Shown piece by piece: positions 19,986 to 43,354 of a stretch of DNA of 64,000 nucleotides (position 1 is the stretch's first letter; each line of letters starts with the position of its first letter). Under the pieces are notes generated by a model, which did no database searches, was not told the DNA's origin, and saw only the letters and a list, made by a program, of their open reading frames with translations. The DNA comes from a virus (lineage: Duplodnaviria; Caudoviricetes). The DNA lies in the IMG/VR virus record IMGVR_UViG_3300031992_000057, positions 28,207 through 92,206 of that record. One strand, 5' to 3'. The translations under genes and the position numbers were made by a program.

Positions 19986-19999
19986 GCCTTTGGCCGCGT

Positions 20000-20029: not shown

Positions 20030-20049
20030 GCATCCTTGTGGGGATTTTT

Positions 20050-22790: not shown

Positions 22791-24847
22791 ACGTCGCCCT
22801 CCACTTCCAGCGCGAGGCCCTTGGTCCAGTCTCTGATGTAGTCCCCGGACGTCATCGTCTGCGGGATGACGGTGCTCGCCTCCTCGGCCTCCTGTTCGGG
22901 GACCTCGAACACGATCTCGTCGTACACGGAGAAGACGTACCTCCACGAAGGGTGCTTCTTCTCGATTTCGACGGCGGAGTACGCCATGATGTCGCGGCAT
23001 GACGCCTGCACGATGTTCTCCATGATGTTCCCGCCCGTGAAGAACGTCGCGGGGTTCCCGCGAACCGTCGTCGCCTTGATAGCGATGCGGAAGGACGGAT
23101 GCTCGATGCCGTTCTCGTCCACCTCGACCGTCTCCTCCTTGCATAGGTGTGGGTCGAAGTAGCGCTTCACGCGCCCGCTCGGGAGGCGGAACGCGACCGT
23201 GGACTTCCCGGCGGCGATGCGCTGCTTGAACACATCCTCGTACTCGCGCCACTTGGCGACGATCTTGGAGTTCGCATTGCGCCAGTCGCTCACGATCTGA
23301 AGGGACCGAATGAGCTGTCCCACCTTGGTGCGGTTGCGCTCGGAATACAGGTCCCCCTTGATGCGGGCCACGTTCCGCAGTATGAACAGGAGTCTCCGGT
23401 CGAGCTCGGGCCACTCGTCGACGGGGACGGAGGGAAGTTCCAGTCCCTGCGACTTGCAGGAGTCGACGAACTTCGCCGCTCCCATTCCGTACCCAAGGCC
23501 GAGAACGCAGCATTTGGCCAATCTGTAGACATCAGGTTTCTCCTTCTTTATCTTCTCGCCGGGCCGGCACCAACCCATCATCACGGCGTTCGCCTGGTAG
23601 AGGTTGCCCTCGCGCTTCATCGCCTCCATCATGTGCATGTCGTCCACGAGCCACAGGGAGAAGCGGGCTTCAATTTGGCTGTAATCGTAGATGACGAACT
23701 TGTGTCCAGGGCGCGCGATGTACATCCCGCGGATGTTGACGCCCTTCCCGCCGAAGACATGCTCGTCCCCCTGGAGGATCGGCTTGCGCGGCAAATTTAG
23801 TAGATTTCCGGCGCTCTTGCCGGAGTCACTCTTGCCGGAGTCGCGGCCTGTATGCGCCCCGAAAAAGAGGAACTGCGGATGAGAGCACCCGTCAGCGTCG
23901 ACCGAGTCGATGATGCCCTCAATGCGTGCCGAGTGCATGTTGATCGCGACCGCCTTCTGCCTCGCTGCGATGAACGGGACGTCGTCGTGCTCCTTCTGCC
24001 AGTCGAGGAACCCGGGGTCGTCCTTCTTGAACGACTTCGGCGGCTCGATGCCGAGCGCGATGACGGCCTGGCGCAGGGCCGGAAGCGACCCCACGGGCTT
24101 CTCGGGGTACCACGGGACGTCCGCGACGACCTCGGCGTGGTAGCGCTTCAGCTCCTTCAACGCGGCCTTGGCATACTCGACGTCGACCATCACTCCGCGT
24201 ATGGTCGCCTCGCGCTTCTGCGAAGAAATCTGCCGCTCGATTTCGGGGAACTCGGAAGAGAACCTCTCCCACAATTCCAGGCACTCGAGCGCGTCGCTGC
24301 CGCCGTACTCAACGAGAGCCCGGTATTCTTCGGGCGACAGATCGGTGTCGTGACGCCCGTCCATTGCCGATCTCACCGCCTTGCTTATGTCGCGGCCGAA
24401 AAGCTGTTTCATCGCGTCTTTCAGCGAACGCTTGCACAGGAGATACGCCGTCATGTCCGCCGTGCAAACATACTCCACGTCGTCCAGTACGTTCGGGATG
24501 ATGCCGCGCTTCATACACTCGATCAGACAGCGTTCGTCAAATGAAGCGTTATGGATGGCGATGATGTGGTGGTTCACGCGCTCCCACCACGGGAACGACT
24601 CGGGGCGGCCGACGAACAGCTGGACGCCGCTGGCGTCCTCGGACATCATGACGCGGTCCTTATACCCGGGCGTCGGAGTGCCTTCGGGGAACAGACCTCG
24701 GCCCGCGATCGCGACGAGATACGGGTTGAACCTCGGATCGGAACAGTACTGGTCGGTAGTCATGCTAGACAGCGAGTAACCGGCCTTCGTGTCATAGTCC
24801 GTTTCAAAATCGACGGAGAAGACCTGGCTGTCGGGGAACTTACCCAT
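22769..24847 (-). CDS. Family A DNA polymerase with 3'-5' exonuclease
   Basis: Exo DFET, HNASFD, YGGSD; motif A DYSQIEAR; motif B RLAKCCVLGLGYGMG; motif C VYDEI. Confidence 0.92.
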   Translation of the reverse strand: MGKFPDSQVFSVDFETDYDTKAGYSLSSMTTDQYCSDPRFNPYLVAIAGRGLFPEGTPTPGYKDRVMMSEDASGVQLFVGRPESFPWWERVNHHIIAIHNASFDERCLIECMKRGIIPNVLDDVEYVCTADMTAYLLCKRSLKDAMKQLFGRDISKAVRSAMDGRHDTDLSPEEYRALVEYGGSDALECLELWERFSSEFPEIERQISSQKREATIRGVMVDVEYAKAALKELKRYHAEVVADVPWYPEKPVGSLPALRQAVIALGIEPPKSFKKDDPGFLDWQKEHDDVPFIAARQKAVAINMHSARIEGIIDSVDADGCSHPQFLFFGAHTGRDSGKSDSGKSAGNLLNLPRKPILQGDEHVFGGKGVNIRGMYIARPGHKFVIYDYSQIEARFSLWLVDDMHMMEAMKREGNLYQANAVMMGWCRPGEKIKKEKPDVYRLAKCCVLGLGYGMGAAKFVDSCKSQGLELPSVPVDEWPELDRRLLFILRNVARIKGDLYSERNRTKVGQLIRSLQIVSDWRNANSKIVAKWREYEDVFKQRIAAGKSTVAFRLPSGRVKRYFDPHLCKEETVEVDENGIEHPSFRIAIKATTVRGNPATFFTGGNIMENIVQASCRDIMAYSAVEIEKKHPSWRYVFSVYDEIVFEVPEQEAEEASTVIPQTMTSGDYIRDWTKGLALEVEGDVCDRYHK

Positions 24848-25427
24848 GAAGCACCTCCCACTTGTACCCGCCTGCGGTCTTCAGGAACCCGTGCAGGACC
24901 CGCGAGATGCAGCACCCGCTGGCACCGGTGACACGTGCCCCCTCCTTGAGGCTCGGGAACTCGATCCGGTGCCCGGTCCAGTCCGTTGCGACCACGGGCA
25001 CCTTGTTCAGCTTGATGGCCCGTCGCGCGTTTGCACTCACGGCCTTCCGGTGCAACTCACGGGTCAGCGGATTGTCAATAATGTTCTCGCGATGCGTCAC
25101 GTCGCGGAGATTCTCGAGCCGGTTGTCCGACGGGTCACGATTGACGTGGTCGATCTCTCCCTTCAATTCCCCGACGAACACCTCGTACACAAGCCTGTGT
25201 ACGGACATGTCCAGTTTGAGCGCTTTCGTATGGACTCCAACATGGTAGTACCCGAGGTTATTCCTCGTGCCTTTCCACGGAACCTGCCTTCTCGGTGTCG
25301 TGACGAGTCCGTTCCGGCCCACGAACACCTTTCCGTTGCTCTCGGCAACCTCGACGTACTCGACGCCATTTATCTCCTTCCGAAGTTTACCCGCGTGGAA
25401 GTGACGCGCTTTCTTATCAGACAACAT
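24840..25427 (-). CDS. HNH homing endonuclease (HNH_3 plus NUMOD1-like)
   Basis: VHRLV...IDHVNRDPSDNRLENL...EN; C-terminal FPSLKEGAR...TAGGYKW. Confidence 0.9.
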   Translation of the reverse strand: MLSDKKARHFHAGKLRKEINGVEYVEVAESNGKVFVGRNGLVTTPRRQVPWKGTRNNLGYYHVGVHTKALKLDMSVHRLVYEVFVGELKGEIDHVNRDPSDNRLENLRDVTHRENIIDNPLTRELHRKAVSANARRAIKLNKVPVVATDWTGHRIEFPSLKEGARVTGASGCCISRVLHGFLKTAGGYKWEVLHG

Positions 25428-25457
25428 GTTGTCTCCTTGTTTTTCCAAATGGCGCGA

Positions 25458-25487
25458 ATTGTACCACAGCACCGACGTCGGTGTCAA
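25458..25487 (-). promoter_or_regulatory. Operator-containing promoter, copy 3
   Basis: TTGACA-N18-TACAAT; CACCGACGTCGGTG at 25470-25483. Confidence 0.85.
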
Positions 25488-25903
25488 GATACTTTTTTCA
25501 GAAATTTTCTCGAGCTCTCGACGAGCCGCGCGACGACGCGCCGGAGCGACTCCGTCTGCCTCCTCGTGAGCCGTGCGTCGATGGGGTATGTCGAAAGGAC
25601 GTTCTGCAGCGCGCACCTCGTCTCGGCGAAGAACGCGGCGGCCTCGGCGAAGTCCGGCTTCATGCGCTTCCCGAAACGCGCCCGCCACAGCTGGTCCTCG
25701 GCGAACGCCGCCAGGGCGTACACGCCGAACACGGGGCGCTTCAGCGGCGCGCCCGACACGTACCACGCCTCGGCATGGTGTACGAGCCCCTTTCTCGGCC
25801 AGAGGAACCGCCGTCCGTCCAGAGCCTCGCGGTACCTCCGCCTGATCCCGTCGCCACACTCGTACACGATGACGACCTTTCCGTCGACCTTTTCCCTTTT
25901 CAT
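25484..25903 (-). CDS. Hypothetical protein
   Basis: GAGG RBS; ATGA coupling. Confidence 0.6.
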   Translation of the reverse strand: MKREKVDGKVVIVYECGDGIRRRYREALDGRRFLWPRKGLVHHAEAWYVSGAPLKRPVFGVYALAAFAEDQLWRARFGKRMKPDFAEAAAFFAETRCALQNVLSTYPIDARLTRRQTESLRRVVARLVESSRKFLKKVS

Positions 25904-26076
25904 TCGGTGTCCCTCGCCACAAGCATCTCGACACGCACGTGCGACACGCCCGGTGTCGAGCACACGCGCCTGAACTCGCTGTCAATGTCGACAACCACTG
26001 TGTCATCGACGCCGCGCAGGGCGGCCTTCAAGTCACCCGCCGTGCACGGCAGGTCGATTATCCTTTTGCTCTCCAT
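25900..26076 (-). CDS. Small hypothetical protein, probably leaderless
   Basis: ATG 8 nt downstream of -10 box. Confidence 0.55.
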   Translation of the reverse strand: MESKRIIDLPCTAGDLKAALRGVDDTVVVDIDSEFRRVCSTPGVSHVRVEMLVARDTE

Positions 26077-26084
26077 GGGCGCGA

Positions 26085-26114
26085 ATTGTACCACAGCACC
26101 GACGTCGGTGTCAA
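26085..26114 (-). promoter_or_regulatory. Operator-containing promoter, copy 4
   Basis: Identical to copy 3 over 38 bp (26078-26115 = 25451-25488). Confidence 0.85.
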
Positions 26115-26129
26115 GCGCAAAGAATAAAA

Positions 26130-26158
26130 TTGCTCTCGCTGGCGGATTGTGGTACAAT
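26130..26158 (+). promoter_or_regulatory. Divergent extended -10 promoter
   Basis: TTGCTC-N17-TACAAT with TGTGG; ATG 7 nt downstream. Confidence 0.7.
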
Positions 26159-26165
26159 ACGCGCC

Positions 26166-27344
26166 ATGAGCACTTCATCATACCCTCAGTTCAGCATAAT
26201 GAACCCGTCCGACTTCAAATTCAGATCGTCGAACGATGACGCTGCGCTGGACAGTTCGTCGCACGAGGCCGGCAACACGCTTCTGCTTCTGCTGTTGGCC
26301 GCCTGTCTGAGAGAGTGGGCGACCGAACTTGAGAATCTCGTCAACGCATGGTCGTCTGTCTGGAACATCAAAAGCAACATCCCGAATATAACACGGCTGG
26401 ACGGCAACTTTTCAGACTTCCTGACCGGGTGCATTCCATCATGTCGTTACAGCGATGGGTCGATAGGCTGGGCAAAGACGGTCAATCATAGCAGATGGGA
26501 CCCGGGTCCGCCAGACGACAAAACCTCGACAGCCGACGTGCGCAACAGGTTCATCGAACTCGCGCGGCCAGAACGCAACGGAGAGCCAAGCATACTGCTT
26601 TCCGTAAGCGACCTCAAGGCGGCAGTGGCGTTCCTGTGCCAGCCAGGGGAGCAGATGTACTGGGCAACCAGCAATAGCTCTATGACATACGGAACCTTCG
26701 TACGCGCAGAATCCAGCGGAACATACACATCAGAACACTATCAGTACGAATACAACAAGGAAGGCGAACGGGTCAGCGAAACAACCATACCACAAGACAC
26801 AACAAGCATCCCATCAGGTTCGACTGATGGCGCAGTTGGAACCGAAATACAGCTTTCCTCCGAACGAAGAACCAGAACAGACCATCCGGAGAAGACTATA
26901 GAGAACGATGACGGATCGTACACTGTAACGACAGCATACTACACTGAAGCCATCTCAGAGAGCACAACTACATACGATGGAATAACATTTACATTTGAAC
27001 GCCCCATTCCATCTGCATACACGTTGGCCGAAGCCGGCACGCTGTTGTCCGACTGCAGGGTTCGAATTGCCTTCTATCCGTATGTGAGCATCGGCGAGGC
27101 TCGAACGCATCCGCCAATATCAAGCTCCACCCCCACATACATTGAACAAGATGTATCACCGTCATACGACAGCCAGAACCACAAACTGACATTCACGGTC
27201 TCTAACGTTGCCAGCTTGGTGCAGCCAAGCTGTGCCACAGTCATGGCATCATTTGGTGACACGACATACAAGTACAAAGGTGGTTTGATAGGCTCCGCTG
27301 AACTCAGCTGCAAACTCAACCCCCGTCAGCGCATGCTGACCTGA
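26166..27344 (+). CDS. Lower-GC Ser/Thr-rich accessory (moron-like) protein
   Basis: Only + strand gene in the - block; own promoter; A/C-rich composition. Confidence 0.75.
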   Translation: MSTSSYPQFSIMNPSDFKFRSSNDDAALDSSSHEAGNTLLLLLLAACLREWATELENLVNAWSSVWNIKSNIPNITRLDGNFSDFLTGCIPSCRYSDGSIGWAKTVNHSRWDPGPPDDKTSTADVRNRFIELARPERNGEPSILLSVSDLKAAVAFLCQPGEQMYWATSNSSMTYGTFVRAESSGTYTSEHYQYEYNKEGERVSETTIPQDTTSIPSGSTDGAVGTEIQLSSERRTRTDHPEKTIENDDGSYTVTTAYYTEAISESTTTYDGITFTFERPIPSAYTLAEAGTLLSDCRVRIAFYPYVSIGEARTHPPISSSTPTYIEQDVSPSYDSQNHKLTFTVSNVASLVQPSCATVMASFGDTTYKYKGGLIGSAELSCKLNPRQRMLT

Positions 27345-27410
27345 CATTCCGGAAATACAGTGCCATGTCAGACATCGTCGACGCGGCAGCGATCTGTCGC
27401 ACAGACGGGT

Positions 27411-27449
27411 AAAACAAAAGCCCCTCCATCCGTCTCCGGATGAAGGGGC
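27411..27449 (-). terminator. Intrinsic terminator
   Basis: GCCCCTTCATCCG-GAGA-CGGATGGAGGGGC then TTTTGTTTT. Confidence 0.8.
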
Positions 27450-27462
27450 CTTCGGCGCACCG

Positions 27463-28446
27463 TCAGAACTCCGTGTCGCCCACGTCGTCCATCGAGGCGG
27501 TGCCCGCCTTGACTGACATGAGGAACGCGGCGAAGTCCGCCTTCTCCTCGTCCGTGAACTCCCACGGCTTCCCGTCGCGCATCGCGCGCTCGAAGGCGTG
27601 CGTCGTGTACGTGATGCCCTGCTTGTTCGTGGCTTCGCAGGAGTAGATGTGGCACACGAGGCCGTTCACCGACCAGCGGTGCCCCTCGATCGCCTTCTTG
27701 TACCCCTCGGCGTCGATCTTCCCGTCGCGCAGCAGCTTCTTCTGCTCCTGCATGAACGCGAAGTCCGCGCGGGACTTGATGTTCCCGAGCGTCTGGTCGA
27801 GCGACTTGAAGTACTGCTTGTCGAACTCCATCCGTGCCGTCGTGTAGAGACGGTCGCCGATGGGATAGACGCGCAGGTCGTCGCTCTCGAGGGACTCGGG
27901 CACGGGGACCAGCATGAGGAGGTAGCAGAACCTCCCCAGGTTCGCCCTCATCTTCGGGCGCCCCGTGTCGGCCCACGTCTCGCCGGTCGGCTTGAGCGCG
28001 AGCGAGAAGCCCTCCGCTGCCGCGGCCGTGAGGCACGCCTCCTCGGTCATGGGCTTCCCGTCGGCGTCCTGCTGGCCGACGATCCAGCGCTTGGGCGCCA
28101 CGTTGTTGCCGGGCGAGTACGGGCGGTCCTCCTTGAATCCGTCGATCTTGTCGAGGATGATCCCGTAGATGCCGCCGTCCTTTCCGGCTTCGGCGACCTT
28201 CACGTTCGCGTCCTTCGACCTCCCGACGTAGAAGGCGCCCTCCTCGGGCTTGCCGTTCCTCGTCTCGCCCGTGCGCCACTGGCTCATGCCCTGGCCGATG
28301 CGGATGAACGGGAAGTCCAGCTGGACCCCCTGCACCTGCACCTCCGTCGACACCGCCGTCGGTTCGACGGTGGCGACCTGCGTGGACTTGGCGTCCACGA
28401 CCTCTTCCTTTGTTTCCTTGTTTTCCTGTGTGTTTCCTTTGTTCAT
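27463..28446 (-). CDS. Probable ssDNA-binding/recombination protein
   Basis: Replication-module position; FPFIRIGQGMS; acidic C-terminus ending in F. Confidence 0.55.
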   Translation of the reverse strand: MNKGNTQENKETKEEVVDAKSTQVATVEPTAVSTEVQVQGVQLDFPFIRIGQGMSQWRTGETRNGKPEEGAFYVGRSKDANVKVAEAGKDGGIYGIILDKIDGFKEDRPYSPGNNVAPKRWIVGQQDADGKPMTEEACLTAAAAEGFSLALKPTGETWADTGRPKMRANLGRFCYLLMLVPVPESLESDDLRVYPIGDRLYTTARMEFDKQYFKSLDQTLGNIKSRADFAFMQEQKKLLRDGKIDAEGYKKAIEGHRWSVNGLVCHIYSCEATNKQGITYTTHAFERAMRDGKPWEFTDEEKADFAAFLMSVKAGTASMDDVGDTEF

Positions 28447-28784
28447 CTTGGGTTTCCTTGTTTACCATCCCTCGGCACCATGCCTCGGGAATCGCCTGCG
28501 CCCCGGCCTTCCGGTGCGCTGAGGGAACCCATGGTCTCCCTTTCCTTTTGTTCGATTCTCAGAACCTTGCGGGTCCGCGGCGGGACGAGGCAGCCGTTCT
28601 GCCACCTCTTCTCGATCTCGGACCTCGCACCTTTCGCAACGATGAGGGCGCAATCTATCCGGCTATGCAGCCGTTGCGTCCTGTGGGCGTTCCGGCAGAC
28701 AACCTCCGCCTTCCGCAGCAGAAGCGCCGCCTCGGCGAGGTATCTGTCGATCTTGTCGAATCTCGTCCTTGTCAGTATCTTCAC
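28443..28784 (-). CDS. Hypothetical protein
   Basis: GTG after GGAGG; true 3' extent uncertain. Confidence 0.45.
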   Translation of the reverse strand: MKILTRTRFDKIDRYLAEAALLLRKAEVVCRNAHRTQRLHSRIDCALIVAKGARSEIEKRWQNGCLVPPRTRKVLRIEQKERETMGSLSAPEGRGAGDSRGMVPRDGKQGNPR

Positions 28785-29104
28785 TTCGCCTCCATTGACA
28801 GCAGCTCCGCCCGCGCCTCGAGCGACACCCTGCGCGCGTCGTCCTCGACGGGCAGGGCCTCCCACTCCTTCTTGGTGAGGGGCCCGACCCCGTGGCCGAA
28901 CTGCTTCACGAACTCGACGACGTGCCTCATCGTCGTGCGCGACCACCCGCGCCACGTCCGGTGGAACCGGTCCATGGCGTCGTAGAAGCACACGTACGTG
29001 CTGTACGACACGAGGTACGTGACGTCGAGGGTCGACAGCCGCTTGACGTGGGCGAGATTGTTGAACGACTTGTGGCCGTCGTGTATCGGCTTCAGCTCTT
29101 CCAT
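28781..29104 (-). CDS. Hypothetical protein
   Basis: LVSYSTYV...WSRTTMRHV; RBS. Confidence 0.75.
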   Translation of the reverse strand: MEELKPIHDGHKSFNNLAHVKRLSTLDVTYLVSYSTYVCFYDAMDRFHRTWRGWSRTTMRHVVEFVKQFGHGVGPLTKKEWEALPVEDDARRVSLEARAELLSMEAK

Positions 29105-29108
29105 CGGC

Positions 29109-30401
29109 CTACAGCTCCTGCACGGCGGTGAGCTTCGGCGTCCACCTCACGCTCGGCGCGCCCTGCACCATGAACGGCTCCAGGCATTTCTTGATCTCCT
29201 CGTCGGCCTTCTTCTTGGAGAGCCCGTCGCGGACGAGCGTCTCGGCGAGAAGGTTGAGGTCGACGCTCGAGATCTCGAACACCTCCTCGATGTTCATGTG
29301 GAAGCGTGCCATGACGGCCTCGCGGATGTCCGCCGTGCGCGCCGTGTCCACGGACGAGCGCCCCTTCACCGTCGAGATGGAGAAGCCCGGGACGAGCGTC
29401 GCCTGCCTCTCCGGCGGGAACTGTGCGGCCCACGTGGCGTCGTCCTCCTTCGCGGCCTTTATGAAGGTCTCGAGGAACTTCATGCAGGCGCGGCGGAGGC
29501 CCCTCTGCCTCGGCGTCGCCGGGTTGAGGAACGTCTGGCTCGTCACGGTCTCGCCCGCGTACGGGCCTCCGGGCCCGACAAGGTTGGCGAGCGACTGGAC
29601 GATGGTGGTCTTGCCCGTCTTGGGCGCCACCGTCACCTGGTCCTCGTTCGCCGCCTCGGCCACGGCCTGGACCGCCGCCGACTGGTACTTGCACCGGTTC
29701 AGGGCGTTCCACCTGCAATACTGGCAGGCTTCGCAAGGCACGCCCACAATCGAATCGTCGTTCGCCGAACGGTCGGCGATCTCCTCGATGTGCGCAATGC
29801 GCTTGTTCCACTTGACAATCTCGTCAGGGCCGACCGTGAGTTTCTGCTGATCTTCCTCCTCGAGTCTCGGCGCGATGATCTGGCAGATGAAGTTCTCATG
29901 CGCAGGGCAGAGACGGTTCACCTCGCAGGCGTACGCGGCGATCTGGAGCGAGAAGTCATGACTCACGCGGCTCGATTTATAGTCGCAGATGTAGACGAGG
30001 CCCTCCGGCGTCACGACCATGAGGTCGATGTAGCCGTGCCTCCCGCCTCCGCGGTCGACCTCGCACTCAGGGTAGAGCCCCGGCTTGAGCGGACTCTTGC
30101 GGGGCTTCCCCCGTATAGGTCTCAGGCGGAAATTCGGGAACACGGGGAGTTCCTCGACGAGGATCGTCTTCAGCGACGAAGCTATCTCCTCGAGCATCCC
30201 CTTCATGTCGGGGCTTGCCTCCCGCGTCGCGATCCATCCGTCCCACTGGCTGCGCGGGACGGACACCATCTGCTCCGCGTATTCGTGCATGAGCGTGCCG
30301 TCCACGGCCGCCTCGTTCTCCTTGCCGTCCGGCCTGAACCGAGGGCACATTTCCGTCGCCGCAAGGGCGGACGGGCTTATTTTCTGTATTCGATATGCCA
30401 T
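29109..30401 (-). CDS. Cas4/RecB-like PD-(D/E)xK exonuclease
   Basis: SPS...CP, GTLMH, GYID, DYKS, QIAAY, CQYC......C (Fe-S-type Cys). Confidence 0.85.
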   Translation of the reverse strand: MAYRIQKISPSALAATEMCPRFRPDGKENEAAVDGTLMHEYAEQMVSVPRSQWDGWIATREASPDMKGMLEEIASSLKTILVEELPVFPNFRLRPIRGKPRKSPLKPGLYPECEVDRGGGRHGYIDLMVVTPEGLVYICDYKSSRVSHDFSLQIAAYACEVNRLCPAHENFICQIIAPRLEEEDQQKLTVGPDEIVKWNKRIAHIEEIADRSANDDSIVGVPCEACQYCRWNALNRCKYQSAAVQAVAEAANEDQVTVAPKTGKTTIVQSLANLVGPGGPYAGETVTSQTFLNPATPRQRGLRRACMKFLETFIKAAKEDDATWAAQFPPERQATLVPGFSISTVKGRSSVDTARTADIREAVMARFHMNIEEVFEISSVDLNLLAETLVRDGLSKKKADEEIKKCLEPFMVQGAPSVRWTPKLTAVQEL

Positions 30402-30584
30402 AGTCTTCTCCTGTTATGAGGCGGAGCGCGTCCCTTACGCTCTCCTTGACCTCGAAGTCGATGTCTTCGTTTATGAGGGTCACGTGCGTGACCCCCTTCC
30501 AGTAGGAGCCCACGGCGGCGATCATGTCCCTTCGCAGGAACAGCTCGCCGCCGGTCTCCCGGCTCGTGAACTTCACGAACTGGC

Positions 30585-30974
30585 TCACTTGGCCTCCTTC
30601 TTCGGCCTCAGCTCGTCGAGCCACTCGACGGCCAGGTCGTAGATCTTGTTGCCCACGGTCTGCACCTTCTCGTTGTTGACGATCCTCGGCACGACTACGA
30701 TGGCCGCCATCTGGGCCGTGGACGGAACGAGTGCCACGGCTATCTGCGTGGCCACGATCCAGAAGACCATCGGGACGCACGTCCACGACGCCTTCTTGAT
30801 CTTCTCGATCACCCTCGGCCGCGTGCTGTCAATGTCGGTGATCGCCATGAAGGCGCAGAACGATACGATAGCCACGATCGCGATCCACGCTATCGGCACC
30901 CATATGATGGAGCCGAGCACGTGTCTTATGTCGTCCAGCTTCGTCAGCCAGTACATCTGTGCTGTTGTGATCAT
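30585..30974 (-). CDS. Membrane protein
   Basis: Two TM segments; YWLTKLD...VPST. Confidence 0.75.
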   Translation of the reverse strand: MITTAQMYWLTKLDDIRHVLGSIIWVPIAWIAIVAIVSFCAFMAITDIDSTRPRVIEKIKKASWTCVPMVFWIVATQIAVALVPSTAQMAAIVVVPRIVNNEKVQTVGNKIYDLAVEWLDELRPKKEAK

Positions 30975-30978
30975 TGTT

Positions 30979-31218
30979 TCAGTCCTTTCTGGTCTTCGTC
31001 TTCGTCTTCGTCTTCGTCCTTCCGCCGACCTCGACGGTCAGCGTGAGCGGCGAACCTTCGTGGTCGATCGCCTTGACGTCCCTGTCGAGCAGCGTCCGCA
31101 TCTGCGGACTCCCGCCGGCGACGACCGCCAGGATCTTGTCCGTGCGCAGGCCAGTGTCCCTGTCGCGCGCGATGACGTACCCGCAGTCGAGCACGTCGAG
31201 CAGTTCATTCAGTTTCAT
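30979..31218 (-). CDS. Small hypothetical protein
   Basis: GGAG RBS; TK repeat tail. Confidence 0.6.
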   Translation of the reverse strand: MKLNELLDVLDCGYVIARDRDTGLRTDKILAVVAGGSPQMRTLLDRDVKAIDHEGSPLTLTVEVGGRTKTKTKTKTRKD

Positions 31219-31247
31219 CGGTTAACTCCTCCCGTATCTCGTTGTTA

Positions 31248-32609
31248 TCATGTCAGTCCTCTCGATAGGTCTGCGTCGGTCAACGCCCCAATAGCATCTA
31301 CCTTCCCTCCGACCGCCTTCGCCACGCGCTCCTCGACGGAGTCCGCGGCCAGTACGATCTTCTGGGTTGCGTGGGTGCCGCCCACGCGGCGGATCCGCCC
31401 GAGCGCCTGGATGAGCTCGGACGCCGAGTAGCTCGGGCTGATGAGCGAGACGCGCGGGCGCTCGTGGCGCTCGTCGTGCAGCGAGAGCGCGACACCGCAG
31501 GCCGAGGACATCCCGACCATGACGTGCGTTTCGTTGTTCTGGAACGAGGCGATCCCCGCCTGGCGCTCCCTCTCGCTCTGCCCGCCGTAGATGGCGGCGA
31601 ACGGTATGCCCGCCCGCTCCAGCTCCATCTGAACACGCAGCCTCGCGTCTGTAAAATTCAGACACAAAAAGCACGAGTTGCCGTCTTCCGTCTCGCCCGC
31701 GGCCATCTTGGCGAGCACGGATGCCTTGCAGAACTCGGCCTGCTGCCGGAGGCGCAGAAGCTTCACCATCGAGTCCCTCGACGGCTTCTTCATGAGCTCT
31801 GGCATCTCAGCGTACGCCTGGACGAGCGCCTCGTGGTCCTCCTTCTCGAGATCGACGAGGACCACCTCGCGCGTCTCGTCCGGGAAGTCCGGTATCTCGT
31901 CCGGGGTGATGGACATGAACCTCTCGCCCATGTCCCTCCGGATGTCCTCCATGATCGCCCTCGCCCGGAGGCGGTCGCGCGTGAACGCGAACGCCGCCTG
32001 CCGGCCCCTCGCCTGCATCGAGCACCCGTGCCGCCTGCACCAGTCGTAGAACGACGGCGCGACGAACCGGTGGAACCCCATGAGGTAGCCGAGGGCCTGC
32101 ATTTTAAGAGGGGAATCGGCCGGAGTGGCGGTCAAAGCAAGAACCTTGTGGCCGGGCGTGGACGGATTGATCCACCGGGCCACCATCAGCGCCTGCTTGC
32201 ATCCTTTGCCTTTCTGGCCGCTCTTGGCTATCTTGAATATTCCCGAACATGACCTGTGCAGCTCGTCGAAGACGAGAAGCGCGGGGCCCTCCGGGATGTT
32301 CTTCCAGCCTCCTTCGTGCGCATAGAACGGATTGCGTTTGGACGCGATCAGGTTCTCGGGGTTGATGACTCCGATCACCTTGTCCTCGACGCCCATTCCC
32401 CGTATCACGCTCTTCCACTGGGAGATCGCGATCTTGGGGCAGATCACCAGAGTCGGGATTCCCAACTTGGCTATCGTATGGCACGCAAGATACGTCTTTC
32501 CGGCGCCAGTGCTGGCGGCGCAGAGAAACATGCGTTCCTTCTGCAGGACAGCCGTCTGCCGCTCGGCGAGGGGAATCTGCCAATCACGTAATGTTAGCTC
32601 GCTTGTCAT
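31248..32609 (-). CDS. Superfamily 2 helicase
   Basis: STGAGKT, DELH, TATP, QALGRIRR. Confidence 0.9.
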   Translation of the reverse strand: MTSELTLRDWQIPLAERQTAVLQKERMFLCAASTGAGKTYLACHTIAKLGIPTLVICPKIAISQWKSVIRGMGVEDKVIGVINPENLIASKRNPFYAHEGGWKNIPEGPALLVFDELHRSCSGIFKIAKSGQKGKGCKQALMVARWINPSTPGHKVLALTATPADSPLKMQALGYLMGFHRFVAPSFYDWCRRHGCSMQARGRQAAFAFTRDRLRARAIMEDIRRDMGERFMSITPDEIPDFPDETREVVLVDLEKEDHEALVQAYAEMPELMKKPSRDSMVKLLRLRQQAEFCKASVLAKMAAGETEDGNSCFLCLNFTDARLRVQMELERAGIPFAAIYGGQSERERQAGIASFQNNETHVMVGMSSACGVALSLHDERHERPRVSLISPSYSASELIQALGRIRRVGGTHATQKIVLAADSVEERVAKAVGGKVDAIGALTDADLSRGLT

Positions 32610-33234
32610 AGTGGTCCAAAGTTTTACCTTTCCTGGTCCCAGCCTTCAGTACGTCATAATTGACGCCGAGCTCACGAGACCATTGTGCGACGGACATCTT
32701 CCGTCCTTGGTACTCGATTATCCTGACACCGCTTTTGTTGTTTGCCTGGGTGATCAGATCGACAAACCGACAGTTCGACGGCCGGTAATGGCCGTTATAG
32801 TCGATCCTGTCGATCTCCAACCCTGGCTCAAACCCGTGTGCCATCGCCCACCGGTAGAACGTCATGAAACTCTTAGCCCACGACTTGCAGACAGTGATGC
32901 CACGGCCTCCATACCTGTGGTAGCCGCGTGCCTTCGGGTCATTGCATCGTTTCATCATGTCGTGCCAGCATTGATAGATCGGGGTGCCGCTCATGTGGTG
33001 CGCGTTCGATCTCTCGGCGCGCTCCCACATCATGCGGCTCCCCTGCTCCCGTATCTTGCACCCGCAAGATACGACGCGTCCGGTCAGCAGGTCATTGTTG
33101 CGTTTCACCACAACCGCACCGCAGTCGCAGACACACTCCGACAGAGACTTGCACGTACGCGGGTCCTTTCCGGCCGGGCGTCTCACTGTCAGCCGTCCGA
33201 ACCGCGTTCCTGGTGGTATGGTTTTAGGTCTCAT
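32584..33234 (-). CDS. HNH homing endonuclease
   Basis: RFGRLTV...CVCDCG...SCGC...YGGRGI.VC...IDRIDYNGHY.PSNCR. Confidence 0.9.
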   Translation of the reverse strand: MRPKTIPPGTRFGRLTVRRPAGKDPRTCKSLSECVCDCGAVVVKRNNDLLTGRVVSCGCKIREQGSRMMWERAERSNAHHMSGTPIYQCWHDMMKRCNDPKARGYHRYGGRGITVCKSWAKSFMTFYRWAMAHGFEPGLEIDRIDYNGHYRPSNCRFVDLITQANNKSGVRIIEYQGRKMSVAQWSRELGVNYDVLKAGTRKGKTLDHYDKRANIT

Positions 33235-33261
33235 CCTGGTTTCTCCAAATAGATGAAGTGT

Positions 33262-33290
33262 ATAATACCACATCTCGTCGAAAAAGTCAA
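33262..33290 (-). promoter_or_regulatory. Promoter of second HNH gene
   Basis: TTGACT-N17-TATTAT with TG extension. Confidence 0.75.
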
Positions 33291-33291
33291 G

Positions 33292-33588
33292 CTACTCGTC
33301 GGAAACCTTTTCCGGGTCGTAGTTCTCGTCTCCGCCGTGCGGGTCGATCGACAGCACGACGTCGCACGGCTTGTGCTCCGTGACCATGATCGTGCCGTTC
33401 ACGCCGAGGTTGCCCTCGACGTCGCCGATGCGGATGACGGTGTCGAGGCCGTTGGGGAACTCGTCCGTCATGACGAGCCCCATCAGCTGCCTCACCGTCA
33501 TCTCGCCGACGTGCTGCGGGTCGTTGACCCACGGGTTCGCGCTCGGGAAATACACGAGCGCGCCTTTGCTCTTAGTCTTTCTTGCCAT
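33292..33588 (-). CDS. Hypothetical protein
   Basis: RBS; operon context. Confidence 0.7.
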   Translation of the reverse strand: MARKTKSKGALVYFPSANPWVNDPQHVGEMTVRQLMGLVMTDEFPNGLDTVIRIGDVEGNLGVNGTIMVTEHKPCDVVLSIDPHGGDENYDPEKVSDE

Positions 33589-34159
33589 CGTCTGCGATCC
33601 CTCGCCTTCTCTTGACTTCCTGCTCGGCGTCCTTGAGGACCCGGCACTCCATCAGCTTTTCGCACCGCTCGCAGTCGCCGCCGTCCTTGAGGACGGAGCA
33701 TCCGTGCGCGGCGCAGTAGTCCTTGAGCTCCTCGTTCACCCGGTCGATGTCCATCGGCCCCGGGAAGAGGAACGTCGTGACGTCCCCGCCCTTCCTGACG
33801 GCGAGGCACCGGACGACCGCGGATGTGCGTCCGGAGGTCTTGTTCGCGGGCCAGCCGATCGCGACCTGCGTGGCGGCGGACTTCTCGAGCTCGCTCTTGA
33901 GATGTTCGAGGTCGAGGGCCTCCATGTCCCTGTCGAGGATCCTCGCCATGAGGGCCGCGACCTTGTCGTCCATCTGCACCGGGCAGATGTACGCCGTGTC
34001 GCCCACGGTCTGCACCTCGTAGACGCAGTCCTGCGCGCCGTAGCTTCTCGCCACGCGCACCTTCCAGTCCCTCGTGGGCTCCCCGGGAGTCAGCGCCGCC
34101 ATCCGGCGGACGTTCCCGAGCTGGCCGACGAGGTCCTGCTTCGTAAGTCTCGAGAGCAT
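33572..34159 (-). CDS. Hypothetical protein with Cys-rich C-terminus
   Basis: GAGG RBS; C..HGC...CERC....C. Confidence 0.65.
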   Translation of the reverse strand: MLSRLTKQDLVGQLGNVRRMAALTPGEPTRDWKVRVARSYGAQDCVYEVQTVGDTAYICPVQMDDKVAALMARILDRDMEALDLEHLKSELEKSAATQVAIGWPANKTSGRTSAVVRCLAVRKGGDVTTFLFPGPMDIDRVNEELKDYCAAHGCSVLKDGGDCERCEKLMECRVLKDAEQEVKRRRGIADDGKKD

Positions 34160-34161
34160 GG

Positions 34162-34482
34162 TCAGGTCCTCGTCCTCGAGATGTCGAGGCATGCCCTCTC
34201 GAGCGCGCACTTGAGCACGTGGGCGAACGCGACGGACAGGCCGAACTCCTCGCCGCAGACGCGGCCCATGTAGTCGTACGGTTCGTTGTCGCCCTTCGCC
34301 CTGCGGAACTCGAAGTCGCCGTCGAGGCTCTTCATCTCGCTCCTGCACTCGGAGAGGACGCGCAGCAGGCAGCCGACGTCGCCGATGCCGAGCATGGCCC
34401 TGTGCCCCTCCATGAACTTGGGCGCGTCCGTGAGGACCACCGCCCCCGGCTCCACGCTCTCTATGAACAGATTCGTCTTCAT
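34162..34482 (-). CDS. Hypothetical protein
   Basis: AAGGAG RBS. Confidence 0.75.
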   Translation of the reverse strand: MKTNLFIESVEPGAVVLTDAPKFMEGHRAMLGIGDVGCLLRVLSECRSEMKSLDGDFEFRRAKGDNEPYDYMGRVCGEEFGLSVAFAHVLKCALERACLDISRTRT

Positions 34483-34500
34483 GTCAGTCTCCTTTCGTTG

Positions 34501-34535
34501 AAAATGAACGGGGCCCTCCCTTGCGGAAGGGCCCC
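34501..34535 (-). terminator. Intrinsic terminator
   Basis: GGGGCCCTTCC-GCAA-GGGAGGGCCCC then GTTCATTTT. Confidence 0.65.
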
Positions 34536-34542
34536 ATGCGCG

Positions 34543-37050
34543 TCAGAACGGTCCGATGTAGCAGTCGGCCGACTCCATGCTGGACGACGAGTACCAGCCG
34601 CGGCTTGGCACCTCGTCGGAGTCCATGTCCGCGACCAGGTTCGGGAACCAGATGACGCCGAAGCGCCCCTGCGAACCCAGCGTCGTGTTCTGCCCGCGGT
34701 CGAACCCGGGCTGCCTTGCGGCCGCCGCGAGCAGCTCGCGGTACCTCTGCAGCGGGTTCACGCTCGTGAACGCGACGACGTTGCACTGCCCGTGCGCCGC
34801 AAGCCACGCCGCGCTCGGGAGAGGCAGCGACTCGTCGTACCGGTACGCGAGCTTGGCCCGCATCGCGAGCCACGGCGCCGCCGTCCTCACGACGAGGAGC
34901 AGGCGTCCGTACCTGTCCTCGCGCCACCCGAAGTGGAACCCGTCGGGGACGTCCTTCGGGATCCTGGGCGACTCAACCTGCACCGCCCAGTCGGGGCAGC
35001 ACTTCTTCGCGAAGTCCTGGAAGCCGGACAGGCCGCCTCCCTCGCAGCCGTATGCGCTGAACTCCCGGTCGACCGCGACGAGCGGCGAGCCCGAACGCAT
35101 GAGGAATGCGACGTAGAACGCCCGCCACCCCGCTTTCAGGAACTCCTCGCAGTTCCCGTTCCTGTGGAGCGCCTCGATGAACGACTTCGCGTTCACATTC
35201 GTCTCGACGACGATCGCGTGCGGACGGTGCTCGCCTTTGGTGCGCTTGCCGAAGCGCATCTGGACGGACGGGACCTCCCGCATCAGGTCGATGAACTTCG
35301 ACGCCTCCTCGGCGGCCTCGCCGCCAGACCGCGTGTGCATGTCGAACTGGAAGGACGTGAACCACGGGAAGACGTTGGCCTCGCGGGCTTCGTCCACCGT
35401 CTTCGGGCCGAGGTCCGTCATCAGGCCCGACCACACGCCCGCCACGAACTTCTCCGGGAAGTACGGCGAACCGTCCACGAACTCGAGCTCGCCTCCGCTG
35501 AACTTGCGCACGGCGGCGCAGAGGCCGTTCACGAACGCGCCCTCCGGCGTGAACTCCGCGTTGCGGCTTCCCCCGCAGAACCTCGGGTTCTCCGGGGAGC
35601 ACAGGCTGAGGAGCTCCGCCGGGTTCGCCTTGATGCGCCCGACGTCGCTGCGGAACCTCGGGAGGTTCGCGTGCCTCAGCGAGAGCCTGCCCTCGTGGTC
35701 CTGCCACGGGTGCTCGACGCCGCGCTGCCACGTGGCGCCGCCGTGGACGATCATGAACCACTCCTCGGCTATCTCCGAGGCCCTGAGCCCGTCGTCGCCC
35801 GCGTCGTCCTCGGACGTGCCGTCGGCGATCCGGACGGGGTGCGTGACTGGCGCCCAGGAGTCCAGCTCCAGGACGATGTGGTCCGCGGTGATGATGTGCG
35901 CGCCCATGTACACGGGCGCCGACGACGGCATGGCGCTGTCCTCCATGCGGTAGCCGAACGAGTTGGTGTCGCCGTCATCGTCCTCGCCGCTGTGGTCGTT
36001 GATCTCGGGGGTCGCAATGTTGGAGACCGCGAGCCGGGTCGAGCTCGAGAGCGCGTACCGGAAGTCCGTCCCGTAGCCGCACGCAAGGATCGCGAGGACG
36101 AACCTGCGCATCGCGTCGGCGTCCAGGGCGAAGTTGAGCGCCTCGGCCGTCTGGCAGACGCACGCGTCGAACTGGGTCCACGCGGTCTTGCCGCGGTTCC
36201 CGTCGAAGCGCTTCCACTCCTCGCGCGTCCACGCGAAGTAGCCGTCGAGCGTACCGCCCGGCAGCTTCTGCTCGCTGAGCGGCATCGCGTTGAGCCGGCC
36301 CGACGGGATGCGCTCGCCGTCCGTGACGATGCGCGACGCCTGCCAGCCGGAGCATGCGGCCGTGTCCGTGTTCGTGTCCGGCCAGAATATCTGGGCTTCG
36401 GGGAATCCGGAGGCCTTCACGCCCTCCATCCGCGCGAGCGCCTCCAGCACTCCGAGCGGCGCGATGGGCATCGGCAGCTCGCGGGCCTCGTTGGTGGGGT
36501 TGAGCTGCCTGTCCGCCCACTCGCCCACGACCGTGAGCGTGTCGGCGGCGACGTTCGCGACCGCCGTCTGGCTGGCCATCGCGACCTTGATGCGGCGCGC
36601 GATCTCGAGGGTCTTCCCGAGCAGCGCCGTCCCGAACGTGATGCCGGGGTCGACCCCGGCCTGCATCTCCGCCGTCACGACGTCGGGCAGGAGGGCCGCC
36701 GGGTCCTCCTTGCTGTTCGGCACGAGGATCCGCCTCTGGATCTCGGGGAAATCCACGCGGGCGAGCTCCCTCGGCATCGCCGCCACGAGCTTCAGCCCGG
36801 ACTCCGTCCAGGTGAAGCGGTGCGCCCCCGGGTCGAGGACGCTCGTCTGCACCGTGAAGTGCGTCCCCTCCACGAAACCGAGGGTCTCGAGGAGCAGCCT
36901 GGACGCGTCGGCGTCCTCGCCGAGGGCGTGCCACGCCGTGACCGGACGGGTCGCGGAGGCGTACCTCTCGAGGAGCGCCGCCGCGGCCGTCCGTGTGCGT
37001 GGGTTCCTGTACTTCGCAAGAACCGCCGCCATTGCCTGTCTGTATTTCAT
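34543..37050 (-). CDS. Large hypothetical protein (835 aa)
   Basis: AAAGGA RBS; codon bias; no motif recognised. Confidence 0.8.
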   Translation of the reverse strand: MKYRQAMAAVLAKYRNPRTRTAAAALLERYASATRPVTAWHALGEDADASRLLLETLGFVEGTHFTVQTSVLDPGAHRFTWTESGLKLVAAMPRELARVDFPEIQRRILVPNSKEDPAALLPDVVTAEMQAGVDPGITFGTALLGKTLEIARRIKVAMASQTAVANVAADTLTVVGEWADRQLNPTNEARELPMPIAPLGVLEALARMEGVKASGFPEAQIFWPDTNTDTAACSGWQASRIVTDGERIPSGRLNAMPLSEQKLPGGTLDGYFAWTREEWKRFDGNRGKTAWTQFDACVCQTAEALNFALDADAMRRFVLAILACGYGTDFRYALSSSTRLAVSNIATPEINDHSGEDDDGDTNSFGYRMEDSAMPSSAPVYMGAHIITADHIVLELDSWAPVTHPVRIADGTSEDDAGDDGLRASEIAEEWFMIVHGGATWQRGVEHPWQDHEGRLSLRHANLPRFRSDVGRIKANPAELLSLCSPENPRFCGGSRNAEFTPEGAFVNGLCAAVRKFSGGELEFVDGSPYFPEKFVAGVWSGLMTDLGPKTVDEAREANVFPWFTSFQFDMHTRSGGEAAEEASKFIDLMREVPSVQMRFGKRTKGEHRPHAIVVETNVNAKSFIEALHRNGNCEEFLKAGWRAFYVAFLMRSGSPLVAVDREFSAYGCEGGGLSGFQDFAKKCCPDWAVQVESPRIPKDVPDGFHFGWREDRYGRLLLVVRTAAPWLAMRAKLAYRYDESLPLPSAAWLAAHGQCNVVAFTSVNPLQRYRELLAAAARQPGFDRGQNTTLGSQGRFGVIWFPNLVADMDSDEVPSRGWYSSSSMESADCYIGPF

Positions 37051-42063: not shown

Positions 42064-42110
42064 GTCAAACTCCTTTCGTGAATTGATTCATCTTTCTCCC
42101 CTGCCGGAAG

Positions 42111-42147
42111 AAAAATTTTAAGGGGCGCCCTTCTCCAGGAGCGCCCC
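42111..42147 (-). terminator. Intrinsic terminator
   Basis: GGGGCGCTC...GGGCGCCCC then TTAAAATTTTT. Confidence 0.65.
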
Positions 42148-42154: not shown

Positions 42155-42649
42155 TCAGTCGACCTTCCCGGCCGCGTTGACGTTCGCCGCGATCTTACGG
42201 AGGAAGTAGCGGATGCCAGAGGCATCTACGATCTCCCAGCGCGAATCGCACTCGGGATGGTCGGCGCACATGCGCTTCGCCGTCTCGACGATGCGGTTCA
42301 CCTGCTCGCCGTCCTCGGTGAAGAGGTCGACGCACTCCGGGTTCTCCGCGTTCTTCGCCACAAAGCCCTTGTAGAACTTGTAGCTGGCGAGGGACTTGAT
42401 GTCCCCGACGAGGCGGACGAACAGCTCGACCGTCTTGGCGTCGCCCTCGTTCTCGCCGATCGCCTGGACCGTGCGGATCGCGGTGCCGTCGCCGCCGACC
42501 ACCTGGTGCTTCCCGGCGAAGCCGGCGGCCGTCGTGATCAGGACGCGGCCCACGGGCTTGCGGTCGATCGTGCCGGTGATGGCCTCGACCGTCTTGCCCG
42601 CGATGTCGACCTCTTCATACGACGGGATCTCGGTGTACTTGCATTTCAT
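42155..42649 (-). CDS. Hypothetical early protein
   Basis: RBS; preceded by structured leader. Confidence 0.75.
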   Translation of the reverse strand: MKCKYTEIPSYEEVDIAGKTVEAITGTIDRKPVGRVLITTAAGFAGKHQVVGGDGTAIRTVQAIGENEGDAKTVELFVRLVGDIKSLASYKFYKGFVAKNAENPECVDLFTEDGEQVNRIVETAKRMCADHPECDSRWEIVDASGIRYFLRKIAANVNAAGKVD

Positions 42650-42691
42650 CTCTTTGTTTCCTTTGTTTTTGCTCACGCCCATTGGGCGCTC

Positions 42692-42760
42692 GCGGTTTGC
42701 GCAAACCTCTGCCGCACCGTGCGGCAAAGGGGTTTCCCGCACCCCACCCGGGGCGCGGAA
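42692..42760 (-). ncRNA. Structured leader RNA motif, copy B
   Basis: Two hairpins plus conserved tail; covaries with copy A. Confidence 0.6.
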
Positions 42761-42767
42761 ATCGAAA

Positions 42768-43241
42768 TTATCTTTTCGCTCTTGACCTGGATCTGGCTTT
42801 TGCTTGCAATTTCTGCAACTGTGATTTCAGGTCTCCGATGTCTTGCTGAATCTGTGCCAGGTCGGTGGCGCTTTTGCATATTTCAGGCATTCTGACACAC
42901 TGACGGCGCATCCTGGCTTCATAGGCGAACCTGAACTCGTCCATGAACTCATTCCACGTAGCGTGTACGTGGTGGTCAGCGTTATCATAGACGTCCATCA
43001 TCAGTATGTGTTGGTTCCCGTTCTGGAAATCCCGGAACACGACTGCGTATCCGGTATCTTCAATGTGCTGCGATTCATAGAACCAAGTCGCTCCGGTGCG
43101 TAGCCCCATGTCGTCAAACATTTTCTGCAACGACGTCGGCGTCGCCTTGAAGTACCCGATGACTTTGTCCAGAAAATCATCGGACACCCAATGTTCCTTG
43201 CGTCCCATGTCGTTGCATAGGCAGCAATGCTCTATTGCCAT
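42768..43241 (-). CDS. Hypothetical early protein (lower GC)
   Basis: AGGAGG RBS; coiled-coil C-terminus. Confidence 0.75.
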   Translation of the reverse strand: MAIEHCCLCNDMGRKEHWVSDDFLDKVIGYFKATPTSLQKMFDDMGLRTGATWFYESQHIEDTGYAVVFRDFQNGNQHILMMDVYDNADHHVHATWNEFMDEFRFAYEARMRRQCVRMPEICKSATDLAQIQQDIGDLKSQLQKLQAKARSRSRAKR

Positions 43242-43286
43242 AACAAACCTCCTATCGTTTTGCCTCAGCTCCGCGTCAGGGCCTCG

Positions 43287-43354
43287 GCGGTTTACGCAAA
43301 CCTTCTCGGCCACTTGGCCTCGAAGGGGTTTCCCGTCCCCACCCGGGGACGGAA
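43287..43354 (-). ncRNA. Structured leader RNA motif, copy A
   Basis: Same architecture as copy B with different stem sequences. Confidence 0.6.

Follow-up and report, generated by a model that had tools for sequence, protein, structure and literature searches.

A conserved multi-hairpin leader RNA upstream of a small gene and a strong terminator in a lineage of uncultivated rumen phages

What do two look-alike hairpin sequences on the same strand of a phage genome encode, and what are they for? The question arises from the 64,000-nucleotide (nt) stretch of DNA analyzed here, hereafter called the window, which comprises bases 28207-92206 of the 92,206-bp viral record IMGVR_UViG_3300031992_000057 (96% complete, with a guanine plus cytosine (G+C) content of about 65%). 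A first-pass annotation had pointed out two similar two-hairpin stretches on the minus strand, at 42692-42760 and 43287-43354, each about 45 nt before a start codon, and had proposed an unrecognised cis-acting RNA such as an HK022 put-like antiterminator, a processing site, a ribozyme, or a protein-binding switch. Both stretches are real and lie on the strand and at the positions given, with the noted intervals stopping 42 and 45 nt ahead of the respective ATGs. We found that they are parts of a longer multi-hairpin leader RNA of about 95 bases, and we conclude with high confidence that it represents a new family of leader RNAs, conserved, portable, and acting in cis. In it, two hairpins (P1 and P2) separated by a 4-nt spacer are followed by a palindromic spacer, a further hairpin (P4), and a ribosome-binding region, which before gene B is A-rich and open.

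The leader is present in two clear copies, designated A and B, both on the minus strand and both with the same layout: P1 capped by a GGGU loop, a 4-nt A-rich spacer, P2, a 14-nt palindrome, P4, and the ribosome-binding region (Table 1). Minimum-free-energy folds yielded three hairpins, with z-scores of -3.6 to -4.1 for copy B; the corresponding values for copy A were -3.6 for the 80-nt core and -1.9 for a 120-nt stretch. The interior of P2 differs between the copies and pairs in both, as the first-pass annotation had noticed. The two copies are only 77% identical and therefore do not reflect a recent duplication; copy B resembles copy A less than it does the leader found in another phage, L006 (92% identity). 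Copy A nevertheless scored 83.3 and 73.8 bits with the covariance models R1 and R2, respectively. The 17-mer AGGTTTGCGYAAACCGC around the palindrome occurs at two sites only, giving three matches, including that of the palindrome's opposite strand, against 0.19 expected, a number reached in none of 100 shuffles, and the whole 92-kilobase (kb) genome contains just the same two sites.

The comparison with relatives carries the main conclusion. Gene B, the small gene behind copy B, has 73 metagenomic homologs with 94-45% identity in a protein collection, and DNA was recovered for 17 distinct relatives, the fetched contigs being metagenome assemblies. Most sampled relatives (97-46% protein identity) have the leader at the same place, immediately 5' of gene B, and the succession of P1, spacer, P2, palindrome, P4, and A-rich open region is the same in all 17 except L004, in which the GGGU hairpin alone remains. 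The spacer between P1 and P2 is 4 nt long in all relatives but two, and the palindrome is shrunk to an 8-nt core in L010 and L019. P1 and P2 are nearly perfect helices of 9-12 bp whose sequences covary freely: at least seven distinct P2 stem sequences are found across the relatives, all of them able to pair, and the P4 inner stem (helix 4) has double changes among the relatives at 6 of 6 pairs. Stem sequences vary widely, yet every leader folds alike (z = -2.2 to -6.1), with GGGU, GCGU, GAGU, or CGG as loops.

The covariation was also assessed in a 13-leader alignment. This alignment was fitted by a model to the structure and hence favours pairing; within it, 92.4% of the cells were in standard pairs compared with 72.5% in shuffles (0 of 500 shuffles as high), and the independent single-sequence folds are in agreement. 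Changes on both sides were found in the same alignment at 21 of the 28 pairs, whereas 10.4 were expected, and sliding the partners by 1-3 columns lowered the pairing to 36-53%. R2, the second covariance model, was built from this alignment and detects leaders outside it, namely those of L009 (52 bits), L024 (46 bits), and L023 (44 bits). Covariation, which had been suspected from the two copies alone, was thus upheld in homologs.

The leader had no counterpart in the collections searched. Rfam 15 gave no match in the whole window at the gathering score, no match overlapping the leader between 42000 and 45200 at E values up to 5, and none to the leaders in the loci of 12 relatives at E values up to 1, in agreement with the proposal of an unrecognised cis RNA. 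As no Rfam ribozyme family matched the leader, the suggestion of a ribozyme was rejected as far as known ribozymes are concerned. Neither transfer RNA (tRNA) nor transfer-messenger RNA was found in the window or the leaders by ARAGORN or Rfam. Public phage genomes contained no DNA match; in IMG/VR, the leader pattern had no match and a search with gene B alone found no relative. A single match in a genome collection, in a metagenome-assembled genome of Methanocorpusculum, spans an open reading frame (ORF) on the opposite strand and looks spurious.

Which strand carries the structure, and does it contain further pairings? G-U pairs recur in the leaders, and folding of the two strands favoured the sense strand in 14 of 18 leaders; summed over the 18, the energies were -855 kcal/mol for sense and -758 kcal/mol for antisense. 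The structure therefore belongs to the mRNA strand, as had been claimed from the G-U pairs of the two copies, and the same G-U pairs and fold energies disfavour an element of the opposite strand or a DNA hairpin such as an N4-like hairpin promoter. Two additional pairings that had been envisaged did not hold up in the relatives. For a switch in which GGUUU would pair with either of two AAACC segments, the palindrome halves change jointly in distant lineages (GTGTT..AACAC, ACTTC..GAAGT) whereas the upstream spacer stays static, without covariation in L005, L009, L021, L023, and L024. For a pseudoknot between the GGGU loop and ACC, the ACC is missing 3' of the GGGU hairpin in L005, L023, and L024, and a 4-nt loop atop a 12-bp stem makes such a pseudoknot sterically implausible as well.

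Table 1. Positions in the window of the leader copies, their parts, and the adjoining genes and terminator (aa, amino acids; pI, isoelectric point)
Feature	Position	Strand	Description
Third copy	50617..50709	-	Weak and diverged; P1 with GGGU loop, P2-like hairpin, GCAAACC; likely ATG at 50616, first early gene
Copy A	43262..43354	-	P1 43354-43331 (GGGU loop); P2 43326-43301
Copy A near-palindrome GGTTTGCGTAAACC	43302-43289	-	Followed by weakly paired P4-like stretch 43288-43262; ATG at 43241
Gene A	42768..43241	-	157 aa; lower G+C; orphan; strong Shine-Dalgarno sequence
U-rich lead-in TTCGATTTCC	42757..42766	-	Directly 3' of gene A stop; last bases form 5' strand of P1
Copy B	42671..42761	-	
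Copy B P1	42734..42761	-	12 bp; loop GGGU 42749-42746, C-G closing pair; pairs covary (helices 1, 2)
Copy B P2	42706..42730	-	11 bp; loop CGG; 4 nt past P1
Copy B palindrome GGTTTGCGCAAACC	42694..42707	-	Perfect, 14 nt; first 2 bases double as last 2 of P2
Copy B P4	42671..42693	-	6-bp inner stem, GA/GA internal loop, 2-bp outer stem
A-rich ribosome-binding region AAAAACAAAGGAAACAAAGAG	42650..42670	-	Unstructured; before gene B ATG at 42649
Gene B	42155..42649	-	164 aa; conserved phage protein; AlphaFold2 pLDDT 94.6; pI 5.5 (mildly acidic)
Intrinsic terminator past gene B	42108..42147	-	GC-rich hairpin and U-run

The segment between P2 and P4 behaves differently from the helices. Perfect palindromes of 12-16 nt are located at -54 to -65 from the ATG in 14 of 18 leaders but in only 2.75% of shuffled leaders. 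Four variants, GGTTTGCGCAAACC, (T)GTGTTGCGCAACAC(A), GTTGTGCACAAC, and TACTTCGCGAAGTA, occupy the same position in the relatives, each symmetric through its centre (GCGC, TGCA, CGCG), and within the close group the palindrome is unchanged although the flanking stems vary. In predicted RNA folds the segment is mostly unpaired, its left end overlapping the 3' strand of P2; a separate RNA hairpin, P3, was rejected, with 5 pairs only, little variation, and competition with the base of P2. Because an RNA hairpin needs no self-complementary loop and the segment is largely unpaired, a two-fold symmetric partner is suggested, and the pattern of the variants points to recognition by such a partner, most simply a dimeric protein on duplex DNA. 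As an alternative to an RNA element, a dimeric protein that serves as a roadblock or repressor may use the palindrome as its operator in double-stranded DNA, with the hairpins secondary; this would be compatible with the RNA readings discussed below, and the operator may additionally be read as RNA. Aca2 is known to read its inverted repeat as RNA. The excess over shuffles, the centre symmetry of all four variants, the unpaired state of the segment, and its invariance beside changing stems all favour such an operator. We nonetheless consider it unlikely: no promoter-like site adjoins the palindrome, which lies about 60 nt within a region that covariation indicates is transcribed, the neighbouring genes revealed no DNA-binding protein, of the helix-turn-helix type or otherwise, and the palindrome occurs once per genome, the central symmetry being lost in copy A (GCGT at the centre of its near-palindrome).

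What might the RNA do for the genes that follow it? A strong terminator stands directly 3' of gene B in the window and in 14 of 15 relatives examined; in the window it is the hairpin and U-run at 42147-42108, close to 42111, where the first-pass annotation had placed a terminator. The next gene starts about 45 nt past this terminator and opens a conserved 7.5-kb block that ends at another terminator (34537-34508), after which a good promoter follows at 33290. A consensus scan found no sigma-70-like site in the approximately 45 nt between the gene B terminator and the next gene. The co-directional gene array contains further strong terminators at 50012, 49201, and 34537. Between the gene B terminator and the next gene, at 42124-42061 on the minus strand, a weak Rfam match to Mu-gpT-DE was seen (19 bits, E 0.47, gathering score 49), and a second small hairpin there, UUUUUCUUCC..GGGAGAAAGA, is kept in close relatives.

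No conserved promoter was found upstream of the leader in the window or the relatives, and the consensus scan, which finds both kinds of element elsewhere in the phage, detected no sigma-70-like promoter and no terminator-like site within copy A or copy B. L023 has one promoter-like site that ends immediately ahead of P1; this is no more than chance would produce, and its relative L024 has no such site. The leader instead starts 5-15 nt past the stop codon of the upstream gene or, in some relatives, past a noncoding block. In L009 it starts 9 nt past a 65-nt match to the Rfam tRNA model (L009:198-262; 44.3 bits, above the gathering score), for which ARAGORN makes no call. Motifs resembling a T arm were also observed upstream of the leader in L005 (GGTGGTTCGAATCCACC) and at about 43425 in the window (GGGTTCGACTCCC). 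In L023, a relative of lower G+C, genes for nicotinamide adenine dinucleotide (NAD) salvage and synthesis (L023:1-2880) lie directly upstream of the leader; they encode NAPRTase, a CTP_transf_like plus NUDIX protein that is probably NMNAT, NAD synthase, and an isochorismatase-like protein.

The annotation had also seen a GGGU-loop hairpin at 50678-50713. The hairpin is present there and belongs to a weak and diverged third copy, which R2 aligned over its full length with 23.9 bits (E about 1e-3 in 156 kb); the 8-mer CCGGGTGG, by contrast, is not enriched (7 found, 5.2 expected). The third copy lies upstream of two terminators of the array. The first early gene behind it is followed by a terminator at 50012-49983, and the next gene starts from 49981, leaving no room for a promoter. 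The proteins behind the three copies are mutually unrelated, and the leader is therefore a portable module rather than an operator for one protein.

This bears on the possibility of a translational operator, in which the gene B product, like gp32 on T4 gene 32 mRNA, or a RegA-like repressor would bind the GGGU hairpin or hairpins and then spread over or block the ribosome-binding region, shutting off synthesis once the protein suffices. The succession of a structured element and an unstructured A-rich ribosome-binding region recalls the T4 gene 32 leader, gene B is accompanied by the present leader throughout its detectable family, and the loop sequence is kept while the stems vary. Gene B belongs to no Pfam, PHROG, or NCBIfam family and gave no match to a solved fold or a viral predicted fold and no atlas match; its product is mildly acidic, and no resemblance to an OB fold or to any other fold that binds nucleic acids was seen. 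Two unrelated genes in this genome also have copies ahead of them, and P4 ends about 22 nt short of the AUG, so that binding at the hairpin would not mask the start site directly. We judge a translational operator to be improbable.

We favour, with a probability of roughly 0.35, the reading that the leader is a portable antitermination element of the nut or put kind. The folded P1/P2 pair would display the conserved C-GGGU-G loop alongside the conserved spacer and the palindromic linear segment, and the host RNA polymerase would recognise the nascent leader during elongation, by itself in the manner of HK022 put or with the help of a phage protein in the manner of lambda N at nut. The polymerase so modified would pass the strong terminator after gene B into the conserved 7.5-kb block, which has no promoter-like site of its own, while the open A-rich ribosome-binding region would support high translation of gene B. 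This proposal rests on the arrangement of the terminators, the absence of promoter-like sites downstream, the place where the third copy lies, the portability of the module, and the combination of variable stems with fixed loops; stems that vary while loop, spacer, and linear segment stay constant are the pattern expected for a recognition platform. The put-like antiterminator suggested at the outset is still a live reading because a conserved terminator follows with no promoter-like site behind it. The phage has good sigma-70-type promoters with extended -10 elements at 26114-26085 (minus strand), 33290-33262 (minus strand), and 50901-50930 (plus strand), which indicate that its transcription is at least partly by a bacterial host polymerase.

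Several observations weigh against antitermination. The stems are long and regular, unlike the bulges and triplex of put and the 5-bp boxB of nut, and neither an N-like nor another RNA-binding protein is recognisable. The leader usually follows a stop codon closely and does not stand right after a promoter, and P4 and the A-rich ribosome-binding region are conserved too, which suggests a role in translation or stability. The third copy is weak, and the complete 98-kb relative G001 has one leader copy; a second GGGU site in G001 is not a hairpin. Terminators that are merely leaky would account for downstream expression without antitermination, and an RNA that binds RNA polymerase leaves the through-centre symmetry of the palindrome unexplained. 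A more far-reaching version, in which the leader would define a new class of portable processive antitermination RNA, factor-independent like put or working with a new phage protein such as that of gene B, with the palindrome read as both DNA and RNA by a dimeric regulator, and in which all of this together would set the early-to-middle switch of the lineage, seems to us doubtful.

The leader may instead be a module for mRNA processing, stability, and translation, which we regard as almost as likely as antitermination. An RNase E-type cut in the single-stranded lead-in, UUCGA|UUUCC, would leave P1 as a paired, protective 5' end, and the result would be a discrete gene B mRNA with the terminator hairpin as its 3' end, stable, heavily translated, and monocistronic. 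P2 and P4 would sequester the G+C-rich flanks, which could otherwise pair with the ribosome-binding site, itself A-rich and open. Processed T4 gene 32 mRNA and the 5' hairpin of ompA offer parallels. The placement of the leader 5-15 nt past an upstream stop codon, or 9 nt past the tRNA-like gene of L009, with no conserved promoter suits such a module, as do its long, perfect, G+C-rich stems, the terminator hairpin at the 3' end, and its occurrence ahead of unrelated genes. The A-rich ribosome-binding region, moreover, is unpaired in almost all relatives despite the 65% G+C genome. Comparable U-rich lead-ins stand before P1 in the relatives, TTCGATTTCC is repeated exactly on the minus strand at 44697-44688 and 44797-44788, and the TTYGATTTC lead-in also opens other structured modules of the same noncoding region. 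RNase E is reported to prefer a uridine two nt downstream of the cut in a single-stranded segment (PMC5222698), and the GAUUU of the lead-in suits this preference. A single 5' hairpin would suffice for protection, however, and the GGGU loop, the fixed 4-nt spacer, and the perfect palindrome are left unexplained; the reading also presupposes a host that has RNase E, and read-through would still be needed for the genes past the terminators.

How did this genome come to have adjacent copies, when every relative searched has a single one? Gene A has no homolog beyond its own record and belongs to no family, and it is missing from L013 and L014, which have the same flanks. The order in L013 is the conserved noncoding block, a 103-aa ORF, the sequence called 'X' in the window, the leader, and gene B, and L014 shares these flanks; the window has the same order plus an insert consisting of the rest of leader A, gene A, and the start of leader B. 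In both relatives, the sequence upstream of copy A in the window is joined directly to the gene B leader. P1 of L013 is a hybrid of a 5' strand of copy A type and a 3' strand of L014 type, imperfectly paired, as expected from recombination within the common CCCCGGGTGGGG core. From these junctions, copy A and gene A appear to be a cassette inserted by recombination at the leader, which would thus double as a site where cassettes of small genes are joined by recombination, in a way that closely recalls T4 PeSLs (PMC4122927). PeSLs are composite terminator/promoter motifs that mediate such shuffling (PMC4122927, PMC2839356). In the strongest form of this idea, the leader would be a PeSL-like mobile cassette, a recombination point that shuffles small genes, and its hairpins a mere terminator/promoter composite. 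Two copies flanking an orphan gene that close relatives lack, together with the apparent hybrid P1 of L013, fit this account. We hold it to be very improbable, because the element contains neither a sigma-70-like promoter nor a U-run terminator, shuffling cannot be what preserves a leader that is single-copy in all other relatives searched, and strong covariation with conserved loops indicates selection on the RNA itself.

The surrounding genome provides few named proteins. A family A DNA polymerase, an HNH endonuclease, a PD-(D/E)XK nuclease, a superfamily-2 helicase, and a DUF5906 nucleoside triphosphatase protein, probably a primase-helicase, are encoded on the minus strand, and nearly all other proteins fall in no Pfam, PHROG, or NCBIfam family. 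The neighbouring proteins showed no families, no sequence matches in PDB, and no DxDxD RNA polymerase motif. Among the matches listed, the family A DNA polymerase shares no more than 27% identity with that of any deposited phage, and every match is below 60%. The leader belongs to a lineage of uncultivated, uncharacterised rumen phages that use host sigma-70-type promoters. Directly upstream of the DNA polymerase gene, with an 8-nt overlap, is an HNH/NUMOD endonuclease gene (24840-26006, minus strand) that is likely to encode a homing endonuclease. A single ORF of 6,447 aa (genome G000 15410-34753, plus strand; window ..-6547) has a G+C of 0.90 at third codon positions; none of its thirds matched a Pfam family, and it lacks a DxDxD motif. 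At about 3,500 aa, N4 virion RNA polymerase is far smaller. The divergent control region between the minus-strand early genes and the plus-strand genes (50860-50960) contains an 11/12 sigma-70 promoter with an extended -10 (50901-50930, plus strand) and an inverted repeat, GGGTATATAGTATGATACCC.

Upstream of copy A, about 1 kb on the minus strand (44870-43825) is rich in hairpins and without a convincing gene. Lead-ins of the form TTYGATTTC or GATTTCAGG divide this region at 44797, 44697, and 44150, and the 'X' block (43496) and leader B (42766) also start with this lead-in. The sequences GATTTCAGG or GTTTCAGG, related to TTCGATTTCC, open two structured noncoding blocks other than the leader. 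Within it, a conserved noncoding block of about 310 nt (44162-43848, minus strand), with no gene called, is found at 8 loci with 71-90% identity. Of the 72 pairs in its consensus fold, 22 show compensatory changes; its 3' end forms a GGUCCCU..GGGAGGGACC hairpin, and Rfam gave no match to it. The block looks like a novel structured RNA. In L003, about 300 noncoding nt of short GGCA, TTGGC, and CGGCA-type repeats (L003:3100-3400) precede the conserved block and could be an iteron-like or protein-binding array.

To our knowledge, structured phage leader RNAs with proven roles are few. They comprise nut, put, and the operators of genes 32 and 43, and all have given general insight into RNA control of elongation or translation. 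The present leader combines a fixed grammar, in which leader, small gene, strong terminator, and a conserved block that looks promoter-less succeed one another, with strong comparative support, and the retention of palindrome symmetry through four sequence variants is unusual. It also offers a clonable handle on regulation in a lineage where almost no protein can be named.

Among these systems, HK022 put (putL and putR), a processive antiterminator that acts in cis without a phage protein, is similar in that two adjacent long stem-loops of similar size are found (about 57 nt for P1 and P2, about 70 nt for put). In both cases the genome carries more than a single copy, the copies differ in sequence but preserve pairing, and intrinsic terminators follow them within an early or middle operon of a phage that uses host RNA polymerase. 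The put stems have functional bulges, stem I contains a minor-groove triplex, and the binding target is the zinc-binding domain of beta-prime (PMC9378689). The leader has the two adjacent stem-loops but neither irregular, bulged stems nor a triplex; its stems are regular, and its conserved parts are the GGGU loop, the 4-nt spacer, the palindrome, and the fourth hairpin. No sequence similarity to put is apparent, and antitermination by the leader is putative.

In phage lambda, the layout is promoter, nutL, N, and tL1, and boxB is a 5-bp stem with a GNRA-like pentaloop. The leader shares with nut and N the succession of an RNA element, a small gene, a terminator, and downstream genes without their own promoter, as well as a hairpin with a conserved loop adjoining a conserved linear element. 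It differs from nut in the loops and the 9-12 bp stems described above, and no boxA-like sequence was seen in it, as judged by eye only. Lambda N is basic and disordered, whereas the gene B product is folded and mildly acidic. The T4 gene 32 mRNA leader is processed by RNase E and autoregulated, and consists of a pseudoknot followed by an unstructured A-rich ribosome-binding region. A structured 5' element, an A-rich open region, a message bounded by a terminator, and a candidate endonuclease site just upstream are common to both; unlike it, the present leader has hairpins rather than a pseudoknot and copies before unrelated genes, and the sequence and predicted fold of gene B gave no sign of nucleic acid binding. 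Like T4 PeSLs, the leader is an intergenic motif that is repeated on either side of an orphan gene and is found where related phages have recombined, but PeSLs are many-copy composites of terminator and promoter, whereas the leader is usually single-copy, has no promoter- or terminator-like site, and is conserved as an RNA structure. Set beside these systems, the leader is new as a motif and familiar as a kind of RNA, although some of its features are unusual, and it is a ready candidate for an Rfam family entry.

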